Of a stretch of 25,915 bases of DNA, positions 3,510 to 7,892 are shown in pieces (position 1 is the stretch's first letter; the number at the start of each line of letters is the position of its first letter). The stretch comes from a virus. Taxonomy: Duplodnaviria > Heunggongvirae > Uroviricota > Caudoviricetes. Made by a program: the position numbers and the translations under genes. The DNA lies in IMG/VR virus record IMGVR_UViG_2671180841_000012, positions 1 through 25,915 of that record. One strand, written 5' to 3'. A model generated the notes under the pieces. It saw only the letters and a program-made list of their open reading frames with translations, did no database searches and was not told the origin of the DNA.

Positions 3510-5775
3510 AGCCTCCGGGCGTTTTGTCCCTCCGTCAGCATTTGCCGCAGGCACCGGTAAGGCGTTTACCGGTGCTTATGCATGGAACGCGCCACGCGAG
3601 GCTGTCGGGCGCGAAAGACCTCTTACACGTGACGAGATGCGTCAGGTGCAAGGTGTTTTATCCACGATTAACCGCCTGCCTTACTTTTTGCGCTCGCTGT
3701 TTACTTCACGCTATGACTACATCCGGCGCAATAAAAGCCCGGTGCACGGGTTTTATTTCCTCACATCCACTTTTCAGCGTCGTTTATGGCCGCGCATTGA
3801 GCGTGTGAATCAGCGCCATGAAATGAACACCGACGCGTCGATGCTGTTTCTGGCAGAGCGTGACCACTATGCGCGCCTGCCGGGAATGAATGACAAGGAG
3901 CTGAAAAAGTTTGCCGCCCGTATCTCATCGCAGCTTTTCATGATGTATGAGGAACTCAGCGATGCCTGGGTGGATGCGCATGGCGAGAAAGAATCGCTGT
4001 TTACGGATGAGGCGCAGGCTCACCTCTATGGTCATGTTGCTGGCGCTGCACGTGCTTTCAATATTTCCCCTCTCTACTGGAAAAAATACCGTAAAGGACA
4101 GATGACCACGAGGCAGGCATATTCTGCCATTGCCCGTCTGTTTAACGATGAGTGGTGGACTCATCAGCTTAAAGGCCAGCGTATGCGCTGGCATGAAGCG
4201 TTACTGATAGCTGTCGGGGAGGTCAATAAAGACCGTTCTCCTTATGCCAGTAAACATGCCATTCGTGATGTGCGTGCGCGCCGCCAGGCAAATCTGGAAT
4301 TTCTTAAATCGTGTGACCTTGAAAACAGGGAAACCGGCGAGCGCATCGACCTTATCAGTAAGGTGATGGGCAGTATTTCTAATCCTGAAATTCGCCGGAT
4401 GGAGCTGATGAACACCATTGCCGGTATTGAGCGTTACGCCGCCGCAGAGGGTGATGTGGGGATGTTTATCACGCTGACCGCGCCGTCAAAGTATCACCCG
4501 GCACGTCAGGTCGGAAAAGGCGAAAGTAAAACCGTCCAGCTTAATCACGGCTGGAATGATGAGGCATTTAATCCAAAGGATGCGCAGCGATATCTCTGCC
4601 GTATCTGGAGCCTGATGCGCACGGCATTCAAGGATAATGACTTACAGGTCTACGGTTTGCGTGTCGTCGAGCCACACCACGACGGAACGCCGCACTGGCA
4701 TATGATGCTTTTTTGTAATCCACGCCAGCGTAACCAGATTATTGAAATCATGCGTCGCTATGCGCTCAAAGAGGATGGCGACGAAAGAGGAGCCGCGCGA
4801 AACCGTTTTCAGGCAAAACACCTTAACCGGGGCGGTGCTGCGGGATATATCGCGAAATACATCTCAAAAAACATCGACGGCTATGCACTGGATGGTCAGC
4901 TCGATAATGATACCGGTAGGCCGCTGAAAGATACTGCGGCGGCTGTTACCGCATGGGCATCAACGTGGCGCATCCCGCAATTTAAAACGGTTGGCCTGCC
5001 GACAATGGGAGCTTACCGTGAGCTACGTAAATTGCCTCGCGGCGTCAGCATTGCTGATGAATTTGACGAACGCGTGGAGGCTGCACGCGCCGCCGCAGAC
5101 AGTGGCGATTTTGCGCTGTATATCAGCGCGCAGGGCGGGGCAAATGTCCCGCGCGATTGTCAGACTGTCAGGGTCGCCCGTAGCCCGTCGGATGACGTTA
5201 ACGAATACGAGGAAGAAGTCGAGAGAGTGGTCGGCATTTACGCGCCGCATCTCGGCGCGCGTCATATTCATATCACCAGAACGACGGACTGGCGCATTGT
5301 GCCGAAAGTTCCGGTCGTTGAGCCTTTGACTTTAAAAAGCGGCATCGCCGCGCCTCGGAGTCCTGTCAATAACTGTGGAAAGCTCACCGGTGGTGATACT
5401 TCGTTACCGGCTCCCACACCTTCTGAGCACGCCGCAGCAGTGCTTAATCTGGTAGATGACGGTGTTATCGAATGGAGTGACCCGGAGGTCGTGATGGCGC
5501 TCAGGGGCGCATTAAAACACGGACTGAGAACACCAAATCGTCAGCAAAGAAACGGAAGCCCGTTAAAACCACATGAAATTGCACCATCGGCCAGACTGAC
5601 CCGGTCGGAAAGAATGCAAATTACCCGTATCCGCGTTGACCTCGCTCAGAACGGTATCAGGCCGCAACGATGGGAGCTTGAGGCGCTGGCGCGTGGCGCG
5701 ACCGTAAATTATGACGGGAAAAAATTCACGTATCCGGTTGCTGATGAGTGGCCGGGGTTCTCGTTACCCATTTGA
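3499..5775 (+). CDS. A: Replication initiator A (rolling-circle, P2 gpA-like)
   Basis: Long ORF 3457..5775; start placed at the Met of MAVKASGRFVPP (3499), which overlaps the upstream stop; contains the HHDGTPHWHMM and YIAKYISKN motifs of rolling-circle initiators. In P2 the origin lies inside A; not located here. Confidence 0.88.
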   Translation: MAVKASGRFVPPSAFAAGTGKAFTGAYAWNAPREAVGRERPLTRDEMRQVQGVLSTINRLPYFLRSLFTSRYDYIRRNKSPVHGFYFLTSTFQRRLWPRIERVNQRHEMNTDASMLFLAERDHYARLPGMNDKELKKFAARISSQLFMMYEELSDAWVDAHGEKESLFTDEAQAHLYGHVAGAARAFNISPLYWKKYRKGQMTTRQAYSAIARLFNDEWWTHQLKGQRMRWHEALLIAVGEVNKDRSPYASKHAIRDVRARRQANLEFLKSCDLENRETGERIDLISKVMGSISNPEIRRMELMNTIAGIERYAAAEGDVGMFITLTAPSKYHPARQVGKGESKTVQLNHGWNDEAFNPKDAQRYLCRIWSLMRTAFKDNDLQVYGLRVVEPHHDGTPHWHMMLFCNPRQRNQIIEIMRRYALKEDGDERGAARNRFQAKHLNRGGAAGYIAKYISKNIDGYALDGQLDNDTGRPLKDTAAAVTAWASTWRIPQFKTVGLPTMGAYRELRKLPRGVSIADEFDERVEAARAAADSGDFALYISAQGGANVPRDCQTVRVARSPSDDVNEYEEEVERVVGIYAPHLGARHIHITRTTDWRIVPKVPVVEPLTLKSGIAAPRSPVNNCGKLTGGDTSLPAPTPSEHAAAVLNLVDDGVIEWSDPEVVMALRGALKHGLRTPNRQQRNGSPLKPHEIAPSARLTRSERMQITRIRVDLAQNGIRPQRWELEALARGATVNYDGKKFTYPVADEWPGFSLPI

Positions 5776-5991
5776 GTAAAAACACAACGTGATTTGATAT
5801 GGCATTGAATGGCTTATGCGGAGCAGTTATGGGGCAGCAGAAGGTCAATAGCATGCTGAATTAGAAGGCTAAATGCTATTGAGTGACTAGCATGTCGGTA
5901 AGGACAGCCGTTTGATCCGGGTCATAAAAGGCCATCCATTTAGTCTAATAAAATCATTGCGGGTAACCTTATGTCGACGCATAATTCGTCT

Positions 5992-6066
5992 TGAGCGAAG
6001 TCTTGTCAGTCTTTCATCGTATTGATGATGGGCGCAAAAAAACCACCCTGGCAGGTGGTTTTTTTG
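5992..6066 (+). ncRNA. Hypothetical small RNA (candidate antisense regulator of the 37-aa peptide mRNA)
   Basis: Promoter-like TTGCGG-N17-CATAAT (5957-5985) places a start near 5991-5993; a transcript would end at the bidirectional terminator (6036-6066). Its first 15 nt are perfectly complementary to the 5' leader of the convergent peptide gene. Purely predicted. Confidence 0.3.
6036..6066. terminator. Bidirectional intrinsic terminator
   Basis: AAAAAAACCACC-CTGGCA-GGTGGTTTTTTT: GC-containing stem flanked by an A-run on one side and a T-run on the other, so it reads as hairpin plus U-tract on both strands. Sits between the end of the A transcript and the 3' end of the minus-strand peptide gene. 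Confidence 0.7.
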
Positions 6067-6077
6067 TTTGAAGCATA

Positions 6078-6191
6078 TTAAAGCATAATGCTGACATTGA
6101 TATTACTGACGTTTACTGACAAACCACTCGGACTACCGTTTGGATAGCCAAAGAGGGCCAGAACGAGAATGCAGTAATAGCATTTCTTCAT
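6078..6191 (-). CDS. 37-aa hydrophobic small protein (candidate type I toxin-like membrane peptide)
   Basis: ATG at 6189-6191 (minus) preceded by AGGAGG four nt upstream; product MKKCYYCILVLALFGYPNGSPSGLSVNVSNINVSIML has two Lys then a ~13-residue hydrophobic stretch and a polar tail; stop TAA at 6078-6080 is followed by the terminator. The track ORF 6078..6344 is a longer in-frame extension lacking a comparable RBS. Confidence 0.55.
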   Translation of the reverse strand: MKKCYYCILVLALFGYPNGSPSGLSVNVSNINVSIML

Positions 6192-6669
6192 ATTGCCTCC
6201 TGTAAGTAGAGGGCAACTTCCACCGGTATATGCGCTTCTTAGGTGGAATGACTTTTGAGCGAAGTCTTGCCCTGAAATAATGCTCTGTTTAAACGCAAAG
6301 TGATTTGGCATATCACCGAACAGAGAGCCGGAAAAACACAACATATAGTATGTCGTTGTTTCTAGGCATACATTCTATGTTGTGTAACAAGGGCTTTGCA
6401 TTAAACATGTTTGAGATTTTATTGATGTAGCTCAAAGTAAAAAACAGAGACTACGGATGATAAGGTCTTGAAAGCAATGTAAATTTTTTAAAGTTGCCAA
6501 TTGCTTAAAAATGTACAGTTGCGGTATGGCGTACTTAAAAAGCTATGCATGCAACAAGTGAATGTTTTTGCATGCGTTGGGGATGTCCGTTCAGGCGGCG
6601 TGCGGTCAGGACTGGTGCGGATCCATAGTATCTATGCAACTGCATTAAAACCGCCCCGTGAAGCGGGCG

Positions 6670-6688
6670 GGCGAGGCGGGGAAAGCAC
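6670..6688. other. cos site (P2-type 19-nt cohesive end)
   Basis: Sequence GGCGAGGCGGGGAAAGCAC matches the P2 cohesive-end sequence as I recall it, in the expected place just upstream of Q. Its presence internal to the element fits a prophage permuted from att. Confidence 0.6.
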
Positions 6689-6857
6689 TGCGCGCTGGCG
6701 GTGGTGCTGATTTTATTTTTTCAGCGTCTGAGCGCGTCGTGATGGCGTTTAGATTGTTCGCCGGGGCGTTGGTGTGTCTGCGGGCTGTTTTGTGCGGTGG
6801 TGAGCGTGTGAGGGCGTGATGGCGGGGTGTAAAAAAGCCGCCCGCAGGCGGCGATGT

Positions 6858-7892
6858 TCAGCCGTTGTCAGTGTCCAGTGAGTAGTTTTTAAAGCGGATG
6901 ACCTCCTGACCGAGCCAGCCGTTTATTTCCCGAATCCTGTCCTGTAACGGGATTAGCTCATTGCGGACAAAGACCTTTGCCACTTTCTCAATATCGCCCA
7001 GTGACCCGACGTTCTCCGGCTTGCCACCCATCAACTGAAAGGGGATGCGGTGTGCGTCCAGCAGGTCAGCGGCGCTGGCTTTTTTGATATTAAAAAAATC
7101 GTCCTTCGTCGCCACTTCACTGAGCGGGATAATTTTAATGCCGTCGGCTTTCCCCTGCGGGGCATAGAGAAACAGGTTTTTAAAGTTGTTGCGGCCTTTC
7201 GACTTCACCATGTTTTCGCGAAGCATTTCGATATCGTTGCGATCCTGCACGGCATCGGTAACGTACATGATGTATCCGGCATGTGCGCCGTTTTCGTAAT
7301 ACTTTCGGCGGAACAGCGTGGCCGACTCATTCAGCCAGGCAGAATTAAGGGCGCTGAGATATTCCGGCAGGCCGTACAACTCCTGATTAATATCCGGCTC
7401 CAGCAGGTGAAACACGGAGCCGGGTGTGAAGGCTGTCGGCTCGTTGAAGGACGGCACCCACCAGTAAACATCCTCCTCCACGCCACGGCGGGTATATTTT
7501 GCCGGTGAGGTTTCCAGTCTGATGACCTTACCGGTGGTGCTGTAACGCTTTTCCAGAAACGCATTACCGAACACCAGAAAATCCAGCACAAAACGGCTGA
7601 AATCCTGCTGGGAAAGCCACGGGTGCGGGATAAACGTTGAAGCCAGAATATTACGTTTGACGTAAATCGGTGAGCTGTGATGCACGGCAGCACGCAGGCT
7701 TTTTGCCAGACCGGTAAAGCTGACCGGCGGCTCATACCATCTGCCGTTACTGATGCACTCGACGTAATCCAGAATGTCACGGCGGTCGAGTACCGGCACC
7801 GGCTCGCCAAAGGTGAATGCTTCCATTTTCGGGGCGCTGGCGGTGATTGTTTTTGCCGCAGGTCGCGGTGTTTTCCCTTTTTTCTTGCTCAT
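6858..7892 (-). CDS. Q: Portal protein (P2 gpQ-like)
   Basis: 344-aa minus-strand ORF, the same length as P2 Q; start overlaps the stop of P; first gene next to cos. Confidence 0.88.
   Translation of the reverse strand: MSKKKGKTPRPAAKTITASAPKMEAFTFGEPVPVLDRRDILDYVECISNGRWYEPPVSFTGLAKSLRAAVHHSSPIYVKRNILASTFIPHPWLSQQDFSRFVLDFLVFGNAFLEKRYSTTGKVIRLETSPAKYTRRGVEEDVYWWVPSFNEPTAFTPGSVFHLLEPDINQELYGLPEYLSALNSAWLNESATLFRRKYYENGAHAGYIMYVTDAVQDRNDIEMLRENMVKSKGRNNFKNLFLYAPQGKADGIKIIPLSEVATKDDFFNIKKASAADLLDAHRIPFQLMGGKPENVGSLGDIEKVAKVFVRNELIPLQDRIREINGWLGQEVIRFKNYSLDTDNG

Follow-up and report, generated by a model that had tools for sequence, protein, structure and literature searches.

The interval between gene A and the cohesive end

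In the window, the whole stretch of 25,915 nucleotides of phage DNA that was analysed, the replication endonuclease gene A ends at 5775, a cohesive end of the P2 type begins near 6669 and the portal gene Q occupies 6858-7892 on the minus strand. An earlier sequence-only reading of this DNA had described gene A, Q and cos as P2-like flanks, and all of these elements were recovered in place. Between gene A and the cohesive end lie a gene for a small peptide with a long mRNA leader on the minus strand, a predicted small RNA (sRNA) gene on the plus strand, a terminator between the two and a promoter region with predicted operator sites (Table 1).

In a local BLAST comparison with P2 (NC_001895), gene A aligned up to window position 5762 with 94% identity, and besides gene A only 6641-6688 aligned, 48 nt including cos that are 100% identical to the right end of P2. 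The region in between, 5776-6640, had no significant similarity to P2 orf91, tin or old in blastn and tblastn searches, and the best tblastn match of Orf91, Tin and Old to the whole window had an E-value of 0.07. These searches bear out the earlier claim that the gap between A and Q holds no ORF resembling Tin or Old; the alignment with P2 reveals unique insert sequence in this gap and excludes a deletion scar. The insert is also as AT-rich as it had appeared by eye: the GC content of 5776-6535 is 40.4%, while the window averages 53.6% and genes A and Q have 53-54%, and no other 760-nt stretch of the window has a lower value. The A-Q interval of P2 is a documented variable locus and defence hotspot with many anti-phage systems (PMC9122126), in agreement with the variability attributed to it before. 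The tin/old cargo of P2 occupies the same position between gene A and cos, but it comprises ~3.2 kb, whereas the insert described here has ~0.86 kb, shares no sequence or protein similarity with that cargo and encodes no conserved protein longer than 37 aa.

Table 1 Features of the interval between gene A and the cohesive end (window coordinates)
Feature	Position	Strand	Details
Junction spacer, gene A stop codon to cassette	5776-5945		P2 lineage only
Predicted sigma-70 promoter of the sRNA	5957-5985	+	TTGCGG (5957-5962), 17-nt spacer, CATAAT (5980-5985)
Predicted antitoxin-like sRNA, ~78 nt	5992-6070	+	5' seed 5991-6007, stem-loop 2 6009-6033, intrinsic terminator
Bidirectional intrinsic terminator	6035-6066		13-bp stem, A7/U7 arms; perfect 13-nt inverted repeat
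Peptide gene, 37 aa, stop codon included	6078-6191	-	MKKCYYCILVLALFGYPNGSPSGLSVNVSNINVSIML; ORF and Shine-Dalgarno sequence conserved
Peptide mRNA leader (5' UTR), ~172 nt	6192-6364	-	Putative start from nrdDG-type spacing, -10 at 6372-6377
Predicted sRNA target site in leader	6253-6269	-	CAAGACUUCGCUCAA and two further pairs (one G-U); exact 15-nt repeat of sRNA 5' end
Predicted NrdR operator	6336-6385	-	Box 2 ATACTATATGTTGTGT (6336-6351), box 1 ACACAACATAGAATGT (6370-6385)
Upstream promoter region	6390-6491	-	FNR-2 TTGAGCTACATCAA (6422-6435), degenerate FNR-1 (6392-6405)
Phage sequence next to cos, with the cohesive end; not part of the cargo	6535-6688		93-97% shared with other P2-like phage ends

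The whole of 5776-6669 had been taken for inserted cargo. This holds for 5946-6491, a self-contained and transferable cassette of ~545 bp, but not for 6535-6669, which is cos-proximal sequence common to P2-like phages. The spacer that separates gene A from the cassette was found in P2-like carriers only, with ~80% identity and a conservation below that of the cassette, and the homology to cassette copies outside the P2 lineage ends at 5946. No conserved structure or ORF was detected in 5776-5945; a hairpin at 5845-5882 was not kept in variants. An imperfect 30-nt repeat (5780-5809 and 6291-6320, 73% identity) has one copy in the spacer and one in the leader region, with no supporting pattern.

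Relatives of the cassette were collected by an exhaustive HMMER search, a degenerate DNA pattern, the 32-mer of the terminator and BLAST against plasmids; a padded 53-aa peptide query against genome contigs yielded no confirmed loci. Carriers were P2-like phages, a filamentous prophage, integrase-carrying conjugative elements and 423 plasmids in PLSDB (394 from Klebsiella, mostly IncF; 351 typed conjugative). Across these different mobile elements and genera, the 545-bp unit keeps the ORF, the ribosome-binding site, the promoters, the terminator and the RNA structures at ~70% nucleotide identity, and copies from phages, plasmids and conjugative elements have an identical terminator 32-mer. Other P2-like phages have the cassette directly after gene A and additional cargo genes behind it; it therefore behaves as a separate element in the hotspot rather than as the hotspot's defence cargo. 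The cassette is not P2-specific, and its distribution is that usually seen for addiction or type I toxin-antitoxin modules. Neither the peptide nor the sRNA is annotated in the RefSeq genome records that were examined, so that a gene-based view finds the A-Q gap empty.

This lack of an annotated gene, together with the homology of one part to a chromosomal intergenic region (see below), could be taken to indicate an inert remnant, either the scar of a lost cargo or host DNA captured from upstream of nrdD. Such an origin is strongly disfavoured and has next to no likelihood in our view, as remnants of tin/old are absent and the whole 545-bp unit is conserved across mobile elements and genera. 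The cassette is carried by ~150 of the 5426 complete E. coli genomes and occurs in ~8% of the places with a P2-type gene A.

A peptide gene and a predicted convergent small RNA

The small peptide gene proposed in the sequence-only reading proved to be real. It is preceded by the Shine-Dalgarno sequence AGGAGG (6196-6201), and every lineage examined had such an ORF, of 37-39 aa and preceded by a Shine-Dalgarno sequence, at identities down to 24-32%. Third-position substitutions were about twice as frequent as those at codon positions 1 and 2, a pattern of the coding type. A longer ORF of 88 aa (6078-6344, minus strand) was considered as the gene; relatives have in-frame stops 3 and 20 codons upstream, and the 88-aa ORF is therefore not the gene.

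The N-terminal segment of the peptide is hydrophobic, but this stretch comprises only ~13 residues (C4 to Y16), which is short for a transmembrane helix. AlphaFold2, applied to the single sequence, placed a helix at residues 3-14 only, with low confidence (mean pLDDT 60). In appearance, the N-terminus resembles a Sec signal or a signal anchor; the polar tail behind it, in which hydrophobic and polar residues alternate, is conserved throughout the family. Searches of the peptide and the other small ORFs of the interval against Pfam, NCBIfam, PHROGs and PADLOC returned nothing meaningful: the peptide had no match to a known toxin family, the defence models of PADLOC-DB gave no family at E <= 1 and PHROGs had no significant match for the insert. 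A small (<60 aa) membrane-type ORF with its own ribosome-binding site, as in type I toxin-antitoxin systems, is present.

The predicted promoter of the sRNA is preceded by the A/T-rich sequence AATAAAA, and its layout, TTGC(G/C/T)-17-CATAAT, recurs in 8/8 lineages examined despite their differing flanks. A promoter scan tool called neither this promoter nor that of the peptide mRNA at its threshold; the sRNA promoter was unlisted because it agrees with 8 of 12 consensus positions at a cut-off of 9/12. The sole promoter that the tool called (minus strand, 6009 to 5981) was rejected, with a -35 element that is unconserved in variants and an orientation away from the conserved features. We infer transcription starts near 5992 (plus strand) for the sRNA and near 6364 (minus strand) for the peptide mRNA. 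The sRNA folds with -29.3 kcal/mol (z = -4.7), and in the consensus fold of seven lineages stem-loop 2 is kept via compensatory changes while the terminator is invariant. This terminator is predicted to serve both the sRNA and the peptide mRNA, and probably also ends gene A transcripts. A search of 5000-7500 against all Rfam families (E <= 1) gave none at its family threshold; the matches to RNAI and Phe leader were sub-threshold, caused by the terminator hairpin, and were discarded.

The leader of the peptide mRNA is structured as well. Its single-sequence fold has a z-score of -4.3, and 28 pairs make up the consensus fold of eight lineages, with compensatory changes in 10; helices in 6283-6325 and a hairpin at 6220-6246 are among the conserved elements. 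In P2-type variants, CCACC/GGTGG is replaced by CCGCC/GGCGG.

An exact 15-nt direct repeat (5991-6005 and 6255-6269) links the 5' end of the sRNA with the leader, where the target site is located ~55 nt upstream of the ribosome-binding site. A repeat of this length was reached in 1 of 3000 first-order Markov resamples. The repeats and hairpins that had been noted in the gap are thus real and beyond chance, and can be explained as the putative sRNA, its target, the bidirectional terminator and the predicted NrdR and FNR operator sites. Both repeat copies were present in every locus that extends past both sites, and a single copy was seen only in two cut-off contigs. Predicted duplex energies of six cognate sRNA-leader pairs ranged from -25.6 to -34.2 kcal/mol; the sRNA of Leclercia gave -31.9 kcal/mol with its own leader versus -12.5 to -21.5 kcal/mol with other leaders. 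An adjacent RNA gene complementary to the mRNA of the candidate toxin, another trait of type I toxin-antitoxin systems, is therefore present by computation.

The length of the complementarity is kept at 14-18 nt, though its boundaries shift between lineages. Where the two-base seed allele AAGGCTTTGCTC stands instead of AAGACTTCGCTC, and likewise in the seed flanks, both copies change together, and for the natural allele pair AAGACUUCGCUC / AAGGCUUUGCUC the duplex energies predict orthogonality in one direction. Among six lineages, 5 pairs were changed on both sides, a value that 0/500 shuffles reached; among nine lineages, 11 cells were changed on both sides, again reached by 0/500 shuffles. 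The count of pairs with a change on both sides showed no excess in the nine lineages, as 69/500 shuffles reached the observed value, and few evolutionary events underlie the covarying positions, in essence those of one clade together with changes in the flanks. Since the two sites are direct DNA repeats, gene conversion could contribute to the covariation.

Carried further, this argument would have the repeats act as DNA sites for protein binding or recombination, with no functional sRNA-mRNA duplex: the copies lie in direct orientation on the same DNA strand, and their homogenisation could mimic covariation. We regard this explanation as very improbable. Where the DNA copies differ, G-U pairs result in the RNA duplex and complementarity remains in its narrow range; the plus-strand copy is always found 6-8 nt after the conserved CATAAT, ahead of a structured and terminated RNA; and 13-18 bp are very short for recombination.

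A genuine sRNA-mRNA pair could also control a peptide that is not toxic, an envelope protein acting in lysogenic conversion, superinfection exclusion or anaerobic growth, the level of which is tuned by the sRNA. A Sec-signal-like N-terminus with a conserved polar tail would suit such a protein, as would a location in a phage hotspot for defence and accessory genes. Moreover, bacteria with timPR can grow without the sRNA when expression is at its native level (PMC7667032), so a small protein under sRNA control is not necessarily a killer. We nevertheless consider a harmless envelope protein rather unlikely, given a strong bias towards plasmids and mobile elements that is typical of toxin-antitoxin modules, the invariable presence of the sRNA beside the peptide gene in all complete loci and the lack of similarity to known exclusion proteins in family searches of the PHROG/PADLOC type.

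A promoter of the nrdDG type

Over 102 nt, the promoter region of the peptide gene is ~78-80% identical to the intergenic region treC-nrdD (E = 8e-22). The matched locus upstream of nrdD is present in 5426/5426 complete E. coli genomes, and its orientation relative to the downstream gene is the same as in the cassette. Judged from this similarity, the promoter of the peptide mRNA is homologous to that of the class III ribonucleotide reductase genes nrdDG in the host. The E. coli nrdDG promoter has the same order of FNR-2, FNR-1, NrdR box 1, -10 and NrdR box 2; it drives nrdD, whereas the cassette copy drives the gene for the 37-aa peptide.

The NrdR boxes of the cassette align with those of E. 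coli nrdDG, which have been experimentally bound (PMC13584703; PMC12176259). The E. coli nrdDG box sequences and the criteria for NrdR sites were taken from the literature (PMC13584703): two 16-bp boxes with C4, A6, A8, T9, T11 and G13, set 15-16 bp apart. In the window, box 2 agrees at 6/6 of these key positions and box 1, which overlaps the -10 element TAGAAT (6372-6377), at 4/6, with a linker of 18 bp as opposed to 15-16 bp in relatives; the S65EC-type operator has 16 bp and the Leclercia-type operator 15 bp. Four of the relatives (L033, L036, L038 and L043) have two boxes with 5-6/6 key positions and a 15-16 bp linker; overall, the relatives keep two boxes with 5-6/6 positions at a spacing of either 15-16 bp or 26 bp. 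Compared to E. coli nrdDG, box 1 of the P2-type copies is shifted by ~10 bp and is a half-box.

The FNR-2 site reads TTGAG-CTAC-ATCAA, which agrees with TTGAT-N4-ATCAA at 9/10 positions and is identical to the site of E. coli nrdD. FNR-1 is degenerate in the window (TTAAT) and intact in variants. With its 18-bp linker, the half-box 1 and this FNR-1 site, the window's copy of the promoter appears to be weakened in both its NrdR operator and its FNR-1 site.

A putative mobile toxin-antitoxin cassette and its relation to known systems

Our best reading, to which we assign a probability of about 60%, is that 5946-6491 represents a horizontally mobile cassette resembling type I toxin-antitoxin systems and belonging to an apparently new family. 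A minus-strand mRNA of ~330 nt would encode the peptide with its signal-anchor-like hydrophobic N-terminus, and the convergent sRNA would be made constitutively from its own promoter on the plus strand. Pairing of the sRNA with the leader would keep the peptide untranslated and would probably remodel a conserved long-range helix between the target site and the sequence immediately before the ribosome-binding site. The peptide is expected to insert in the inner membrane and to inhibit growth once it escapes repression. Its transcription would rise in anaerobiosis through FNR and at low dATP through the release of NrdR. The role of such a cassette may lie in the maintenance of its carrier element or in a growth arrest triggered by stress or infection.

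Exclusion of T4 has been reported for hok/sok, and a toxin released upon infection could serve anti-phage abortive infection: altered dNTP pools or host shut-off would cause sRNA decay or NrdR release, and the peptide would then kill the cell. Such a device would be the specific form of the earlier suggestion that the cargo may serve exclusion or defence, and the analysis gave no direct link of the insert to either. The promoter has predicted operators for a dATP-sensing repressor, and the cassette sits in the P2 A-Q hotspot of many anti-phage systems (PMC9122126). However, no defence family was matched, most copies reside on conjugative plasmids and not in defence islands, separate cargo follows the cassette in several P2-like phages, and a tie to phage sensing was not found, which renders a dedicated function in abortive infection distinctly unlikely.

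More tentatively, the type I toxin-antitoxin-like cassette might be a mobile toxin switch that reads the ribonucleotide-reductase regulators of its host, on only when FNR is active and NrdR is without dATP, with the sRNA setting the threshold; we hold this to be possible rather than likely. The FNR-active state would correspond to anoxic gut conditions, and the loss of dATP to a collapse of the dNTP pool, e.g. during phage replication, replication stress or the action of a nucleotide-depleting defence. If true, this would add a sensing logic new to toxin-antitoxin or abortive-infection systems, and it would be the first NrdR target outside ribonucleotide reductase operons known from phages and hundreds of clinical Klebsiella plasmids. 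In a literature search of incomplete coverage on type I toxins with NrdR or FNR and on the seed and peptide strings, the module was not described.

The interval would hold a conserved two-RNA module, hidden in a studied phage hotspot. Should the peptide prove toxic, a widespread and as yet unnamed factor for the stability of plasmids and prophages, or for the stress response, would reside on clinically important plasmids. The homology of the promoter points to the control of a mobile-element toxin by oxygen and dNTP status, a link that is directly testable, and the natural orthogonal seed alleles may serve as a tool for dissecting sRNA-mRNA pairing.

Among known systems, hok/sok likewise comprises short cassettes of toxin and antisense RNA on conjugative plasmids and prophages that are often missed in annotation. 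In contrast to hok/sok, the sRNA of the cassette is not cis-antisense to the region of the translation start, and an overlapping mok-like frame is not conserved. A match to hok/sok was obtained neither by sequence nor in Pfam, NCBIfam or Rfam.

The logic of the cassette is, in our best reading, like that of timP/timR and tisB/istR-1, with homology to neither detectable. TimP has 38-41 aa, with a signal or anchor of the Sec type at the N-terminus; its coding region starts ~145-170 nt into an mRNA of ~300 nt, and the 5' end of the sRNA TimR pairs with the leader (PMC7667032). The cassette resembles timP/timR (ryfA/STnc2070) in the type of peptide, the position of the gene in the mRNA and the pairing of the sRNA 5' end with the leader, and the N-termini are alike (MKIRCFCIVLI in TimP, M(K/N)(K/R)xxxCILVL in the cassette family). 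The TimP model NF040796 of NCBIfam, which scored 86.8 bits with the K-12 TimP as control, matched none of four cassette relatives at E <= 10 and not the window peptide at E <= 1. A profile-profile comparison (hhalign) of TimP with the cassette family gave a probability of 41% over 11 N-terminal columns only; homology to TimP was not established by either approach. The Rfam model of RyfA (RF00126) had no match at E <= 1. In timPR, a core locus of the chromosome, timR lies upstream in divergent orientation, unlike the downstream and convergent sRNA of the cassette; the cassette is found on phages and plasmids, and its promoter is of the nrdDG type.

In tisB/istR-1, and also in dinQ/agrB, a small membrane peptide is likewise encoded behind a long structured leader, and istR-1 is likewise a separate short sRNA that pairs over a short stretch with the leader, far ahead of the ribosome-binding site. 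TisB forms a single amphipathic helix, whereas the cassette peptide has a signal-like N-terminus; there is no sequence similarity between the systems. The sRNA of tisB/istR-1 is divergent and upstream; that of the cassette is convergent and downstream, with a bidirectional terminator in common. According to one account (PMC13159721), the toxin promoter of tisB is under a host stress repressor and the sRNA is presumed constitutive. The LexA boxes of tisB/istR-1 have their counterpart in the predicted NrdR and FNR sites of nrdDG type, and unlike tisB/istR-1 the cassette travels on mobile elements.

The insert between genes A and Q

The window consists of a P2-like E. coli prophage whose integration site adjoins cpxP. 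Aligned with P2 itself, it is homologous through gene A as far as 5762; beyond that, similarity returns only in the 48 nt that lead up to and include the cohesive end (6641-6688). Searches of the entire window by tblastn with Orf91, Tin and Old gave no match, and the interval between A and Q has a GC content of 40.4% versus 53.6% for the window, with the lowest-GC 760-nt stretch of the window. The P2 alignment, the tblastn searches and the GC calculation thus bear out the sequence-only reading, which had placed a distinct AT-rich insert without Tin or Old between P2-like flanks at the tin/old position. A deletion scar of tin/old is excluded by the P2 comparison. Of the boundaries proposed for the insert, its location between A and Q stood, but 6535-6669 is cos-proximal sequence common to other P2-like phages, and the unit that recurs elsewhere, here termed the cassette, is 5946-6491.

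The interval is without any annotated feature in RefSeq. Its sequence agrees fully with that of strain MNCRE44 (100% identity), and it is carried at 99.6% identity by E. coli W, its derivatives LY180 and KO11FL, and NZ_CP026085.1, a 4.83-Mb assembly labelled E. coli DH5alpha, a label which may be wrong. The cos-proximal segment, which several P2-like phages share in conserved form (Yersinia phages, P2-EC67), contains an inverted repeat at 6547-6575 (GCATGCAACAA / TTTTTGCATGC) that may belong to the packaging site. Positions 5780-5809, the junction just past gene A, and 6291-6320, part of a leader hairpin, form an imperfect direct repeat of 30 nt with 73% identity, which could be due to chance or be the remnant of a second cassette copy.

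Features of the A-Q region in the window and of the corresponding cargo in other P2-like phages
Feature	Position	Strand	Remarks
Gene A	ends 5775		
sRNA promoter (predicted)	5957-5985	plus	TTGCGG-17-CATAAT
Terminator	6035-6066	both directions possible	perfect 13-bp stem, A7/U7 arms; 3' of peptide ORF
37-codon ORF	6191 to 6078	minus	encodes MKKCYYCILVLALFGYPNGSPSGLSVNVSNINVSIML; AGGAGG ribosome-binding site ahead
NrdR box 2 (predicted)	6336-6351	minus	6/6 key positions
NrdR box 1 (predicted)	6370-6385	minus	4/6 key positions; linker 18 bp
Upstream FNR site	6422-6435	minus	TTGAGCTACATCAA, identical to nrdDG copy
Q	6858-7892	minus	
Extra cargo between cassette and cos	L001:4136-5312; L002:4137-6312; L004:5138-7313		ImmA/IrrE-family metallopeptidase and two or three hypothetical proteins

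The peptide gene and its nrdDG-type promoter

The small peptide gene noticed in the sequence was confirmed by its relatives: length, start and stop of the ORF are kept down to 24-32% identity, and the third codon position varies about twice as much as positions 1 and 2. An 88-aa ORF was ruled out as the gene because relatives carry in-frame stops 3 and 20 codons upstream. The peptides share the N-terminal consensus M-(K/N)-(K/R)-x3-C-I-L-V-L-A-L-F-G-Y-P, after which hydrophobic and polar residues alternate in the tail. The hydrophobic part comprises only about 13 residues before G-Y-P and looks less like a complete transmembrane helix than like a Sec signal or signal anchor; the AlphaFold2 model was of low confidence.

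A sensitive BLAST search of the interval matched all complete E. coli genomes (5426/5426) at 78-80% identity over window positions 6390-6491. The matched locus is the treC-nrdD intergenic region, i.e. the nrdDG promoter, and the phage copy is directed at the peptide gene. The alignment recovers two NrdR boxes, and the E. coli boxes obtained from it, GCACTATATATAGACT and ACCCAATATGTTGTAT, are exactly those reported to bind NrdR loaded with ATP and dATP, with C4, A6, A8, T9, T11 and G13 as critical positions and a linker of 15-16 bp (PMC13584703; PMC12176259). Transcription of nrdDG is FNR-dependent, and box 1 overlaps an FNR site (PMC2892513). In the window, a 10-nt inverted repeat (6336-6345/6376-6385) corresponds to the two half-palindromes of the NrdR boxes; the second FNR site is degenerate (TTAAT), being intact in variants, and the -10 element is TAGAAT versus TAAAAT in nrdD. 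The FNR sites of nrdDG lie at -64.5 and -33.5 from the transcription start; these positions were used only for placing the predicted start of the peptide mRNA near 6364.

Since all lineages of the family retain this nrdDG-type control region, transcription of the peptide gene is predicted to be induced in anaerobiosis and on dATP depletion, and repressed when NrdR carries ATP and dATP. The NrdR boxes of four relatives (L033, L036, L038 and L043) have 5-6 of the 6 key positions and linkers of 15-16 bp; in a Kluyvera prophage both boxes have 6/6 with a 26-bp linker, one helical turn more. As the operator of the window departs from the optimum, its NrdR control may be weaker than that of the relatives. 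The window-type cassette differs from the S65EC-type variant at regulatory positions only (FNR-1 TTGAT to TTAAT, -10 TAAAAT to TAGAAT, NrdR linker +2 bp), suggesting a re-tuned promoter variant, and is the commoner of the two among complete E. coli genomes, 81-114 of which carry it at no less than 99% identity.

A convergent predicted sRNA and its proposed pairing with the leader

The first 15 nt of the predicted sRNA, TTGAGCGAAGTCTTG (5991-6005), are repeated exactly at 6255-6269, about 55 nt upstream of the ribosome-binding site in the peptide mRNA leader. Because this second copy sits in a minus-strand leader, the plus-strand RNA would be complementary to it. A direct repeat of such length arose in only one of 3000 Markov resamples of the interval. 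The repeats and hairpins described earlier proved real. The plus-strand sequence of about 78 nt has a predicted fold of -29.3 kcal/mol (z = -4.7), in which a 5' end with little structure is followed by a stem-loop and the terminator, and predicted duplexes of sRNAs with their own leaders range from -25.6 to -34.2 kcal/mol. Stem-loop 2 always forms a hairpin though its sequences are unrelated between lineages; all its substitutions in P2-type variants fall in loops or turn G-U into A-U.

Both repeat copies are present in every complete locus. In the Leclercia/Enterobacter/Salmonella-plasmid clade the seed is AAGGCTTTGCTC instead of AAGACTTCGCTC, with both substitutions in the leader copy and in the sRNA copy, and the flanks co-vary as well (both copies read GTGA in L033 and TGG in L034, L038 and L042). 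Among six lineages, five pairs changed on both sides, and none of 500 shuffles reached that count or the covariation score. With nine lineages, 11 cells changed on both sides and the covariation score was 0.206, neither being reached in 500 shuffles; the number of pairs altered on both sides, by contrast, no longer stood out from the shuffles (69/500 reached it). Pairing amounted to 84% in register versus 33-45% when the partner was slid by 1-3 columns. This covariation comes from few independent events, and gene conversion could contribute to it, since seed and target are direct DNA repeats; at several positions where the DNA copies differ, G-U pairs are found.

The leader contains three helices with compensatory changes, one of which is long-range and connects the target site, at its 5' edge, with the stretch immediately preceding the ribosome-binding site. 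Given this link, sRNA binding would remodel the leader and render the ribosome-binding site less accessible.

As the cassette directly follows gene A, the early operon probably terminates at the cassette's bidirectional terminator as well, in which case read-through early transcripts would carry antitoxin sequence in their 3' ends. A contig assigned to a Segetibacter metagenome-assembled genome has the identical 32-nt terminator (L039:1270-1301) in an unrelated setting that lacks peptide, seed and promoter; either the simple hairpin is identical by chance or the contig is a contaminant.

Distribution and relation to known systems

The cassette was found in about 150 complete E. coli genomes, equal to about 8% of the places with P2-type gene A (1937 places, 1684 genomes), and in 27 IMG/VR contigs. 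In P2DC1, in a Salmonella phage and in strain S65EC it directly follows gene A and precedes more cargo (ImmA/IrrE peptidase, hypothetical genes); the hotspot can thus hold the cassette plus other genes. An exhaustive HMMER search recovered distant peptides at 56-69% identity, encoded, among other loci, in a Kluyvera filamentous prophage with Zot and secretin genes and on a metagenomic contig where a secretin gene is also present. A search with the terminator 32-mer uncovered conjugative elements of Leclercia and Enterobacter; there the cassette has a TraI relaxase and a DsbA-like gene on one side and an integrase on the other. By BLAST against PLSDB, the whole 541 nt matched 423 plasmids at about 71.5% identity (394 from Klebsiella, 351 typed conjugative); the PLSDB feature table, which is incomplete, has no feature at the cassette among the matches listed. 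All lineages keep one layout: an nrdDG-type promoter carrying FNR sites and NrdR boxes, a leader (about 158-177 nt), a ribosome-binding site ahead of a 37-39-codon ORF, the same terminator sequence and a convergent sRNA whose -10 element is CATAAT.

The cassette of one Enterobacter metagenome-assembled genome (L036:4560-6060, minus strand) is split, between the terminator of the peptide gene and the sRNA, by a hydrophobic 217-aa ORF with its own upstream region, no Pfam match and a near-copy of the terminator on either side; a 16-nt match between leader target and sRNA seed persists. A Salmonella IncFII plasmid has a DinQ-like type I toxin (DqlB, L043:5501-5596) in its annotation, about 2 kb from the unannotated cassette; PGAP thus names known type I toxins on this plasmid and has no model for the cassette peptide.

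Maintenance of the mobile element by post-segregational killing would fit this distribution best. A role in conditional growth arrest or abortive infection, which would connect to the defence role suggested from the sequence, is conceivable; PADLOC gave no match for the cassette, and the separate cargo after it in other P2-like phages argues against a role as the hotspot's defence system. Widespread and unannotated, the cassette lends itself to direct tests, and its predicted regulation is unusual.

The small membrane-directed peptide, the long structured leader, the separate predicted sRNA whose 5' end would pair with it, and carriage by phages, plasmids and conjugative elements match the properties that define type I modules at the sequence level. 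We therefore favour, with a probability of roughly 0.6, a new family of type I toxin-antitoxin-like modules with nrdDG-type (FNR/NrdR) control. The literature searched contained no seed or peptide strings and no description of such a module, and the RyfA RNA family gave no match. The closest system in logic is tisB/istR-1, with a stress-controlled toxin promoter and a trans-acting sRNA. Also close is timP/timR, whose peptide is of similar size and bears a signal sequence and whose sRNA uses its 5' end for pairing with the leader, but its gene arrangement is unlike that of the cassette. Membership of neither family could be detected; no cassette peptide was matched by the TimP model, and profile comparison with TimP gave a probability of 41% over 11 columns. 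The distinctive trait of the cassette family is its promoter, a homologue of the nrdDG control region conserved throughout.
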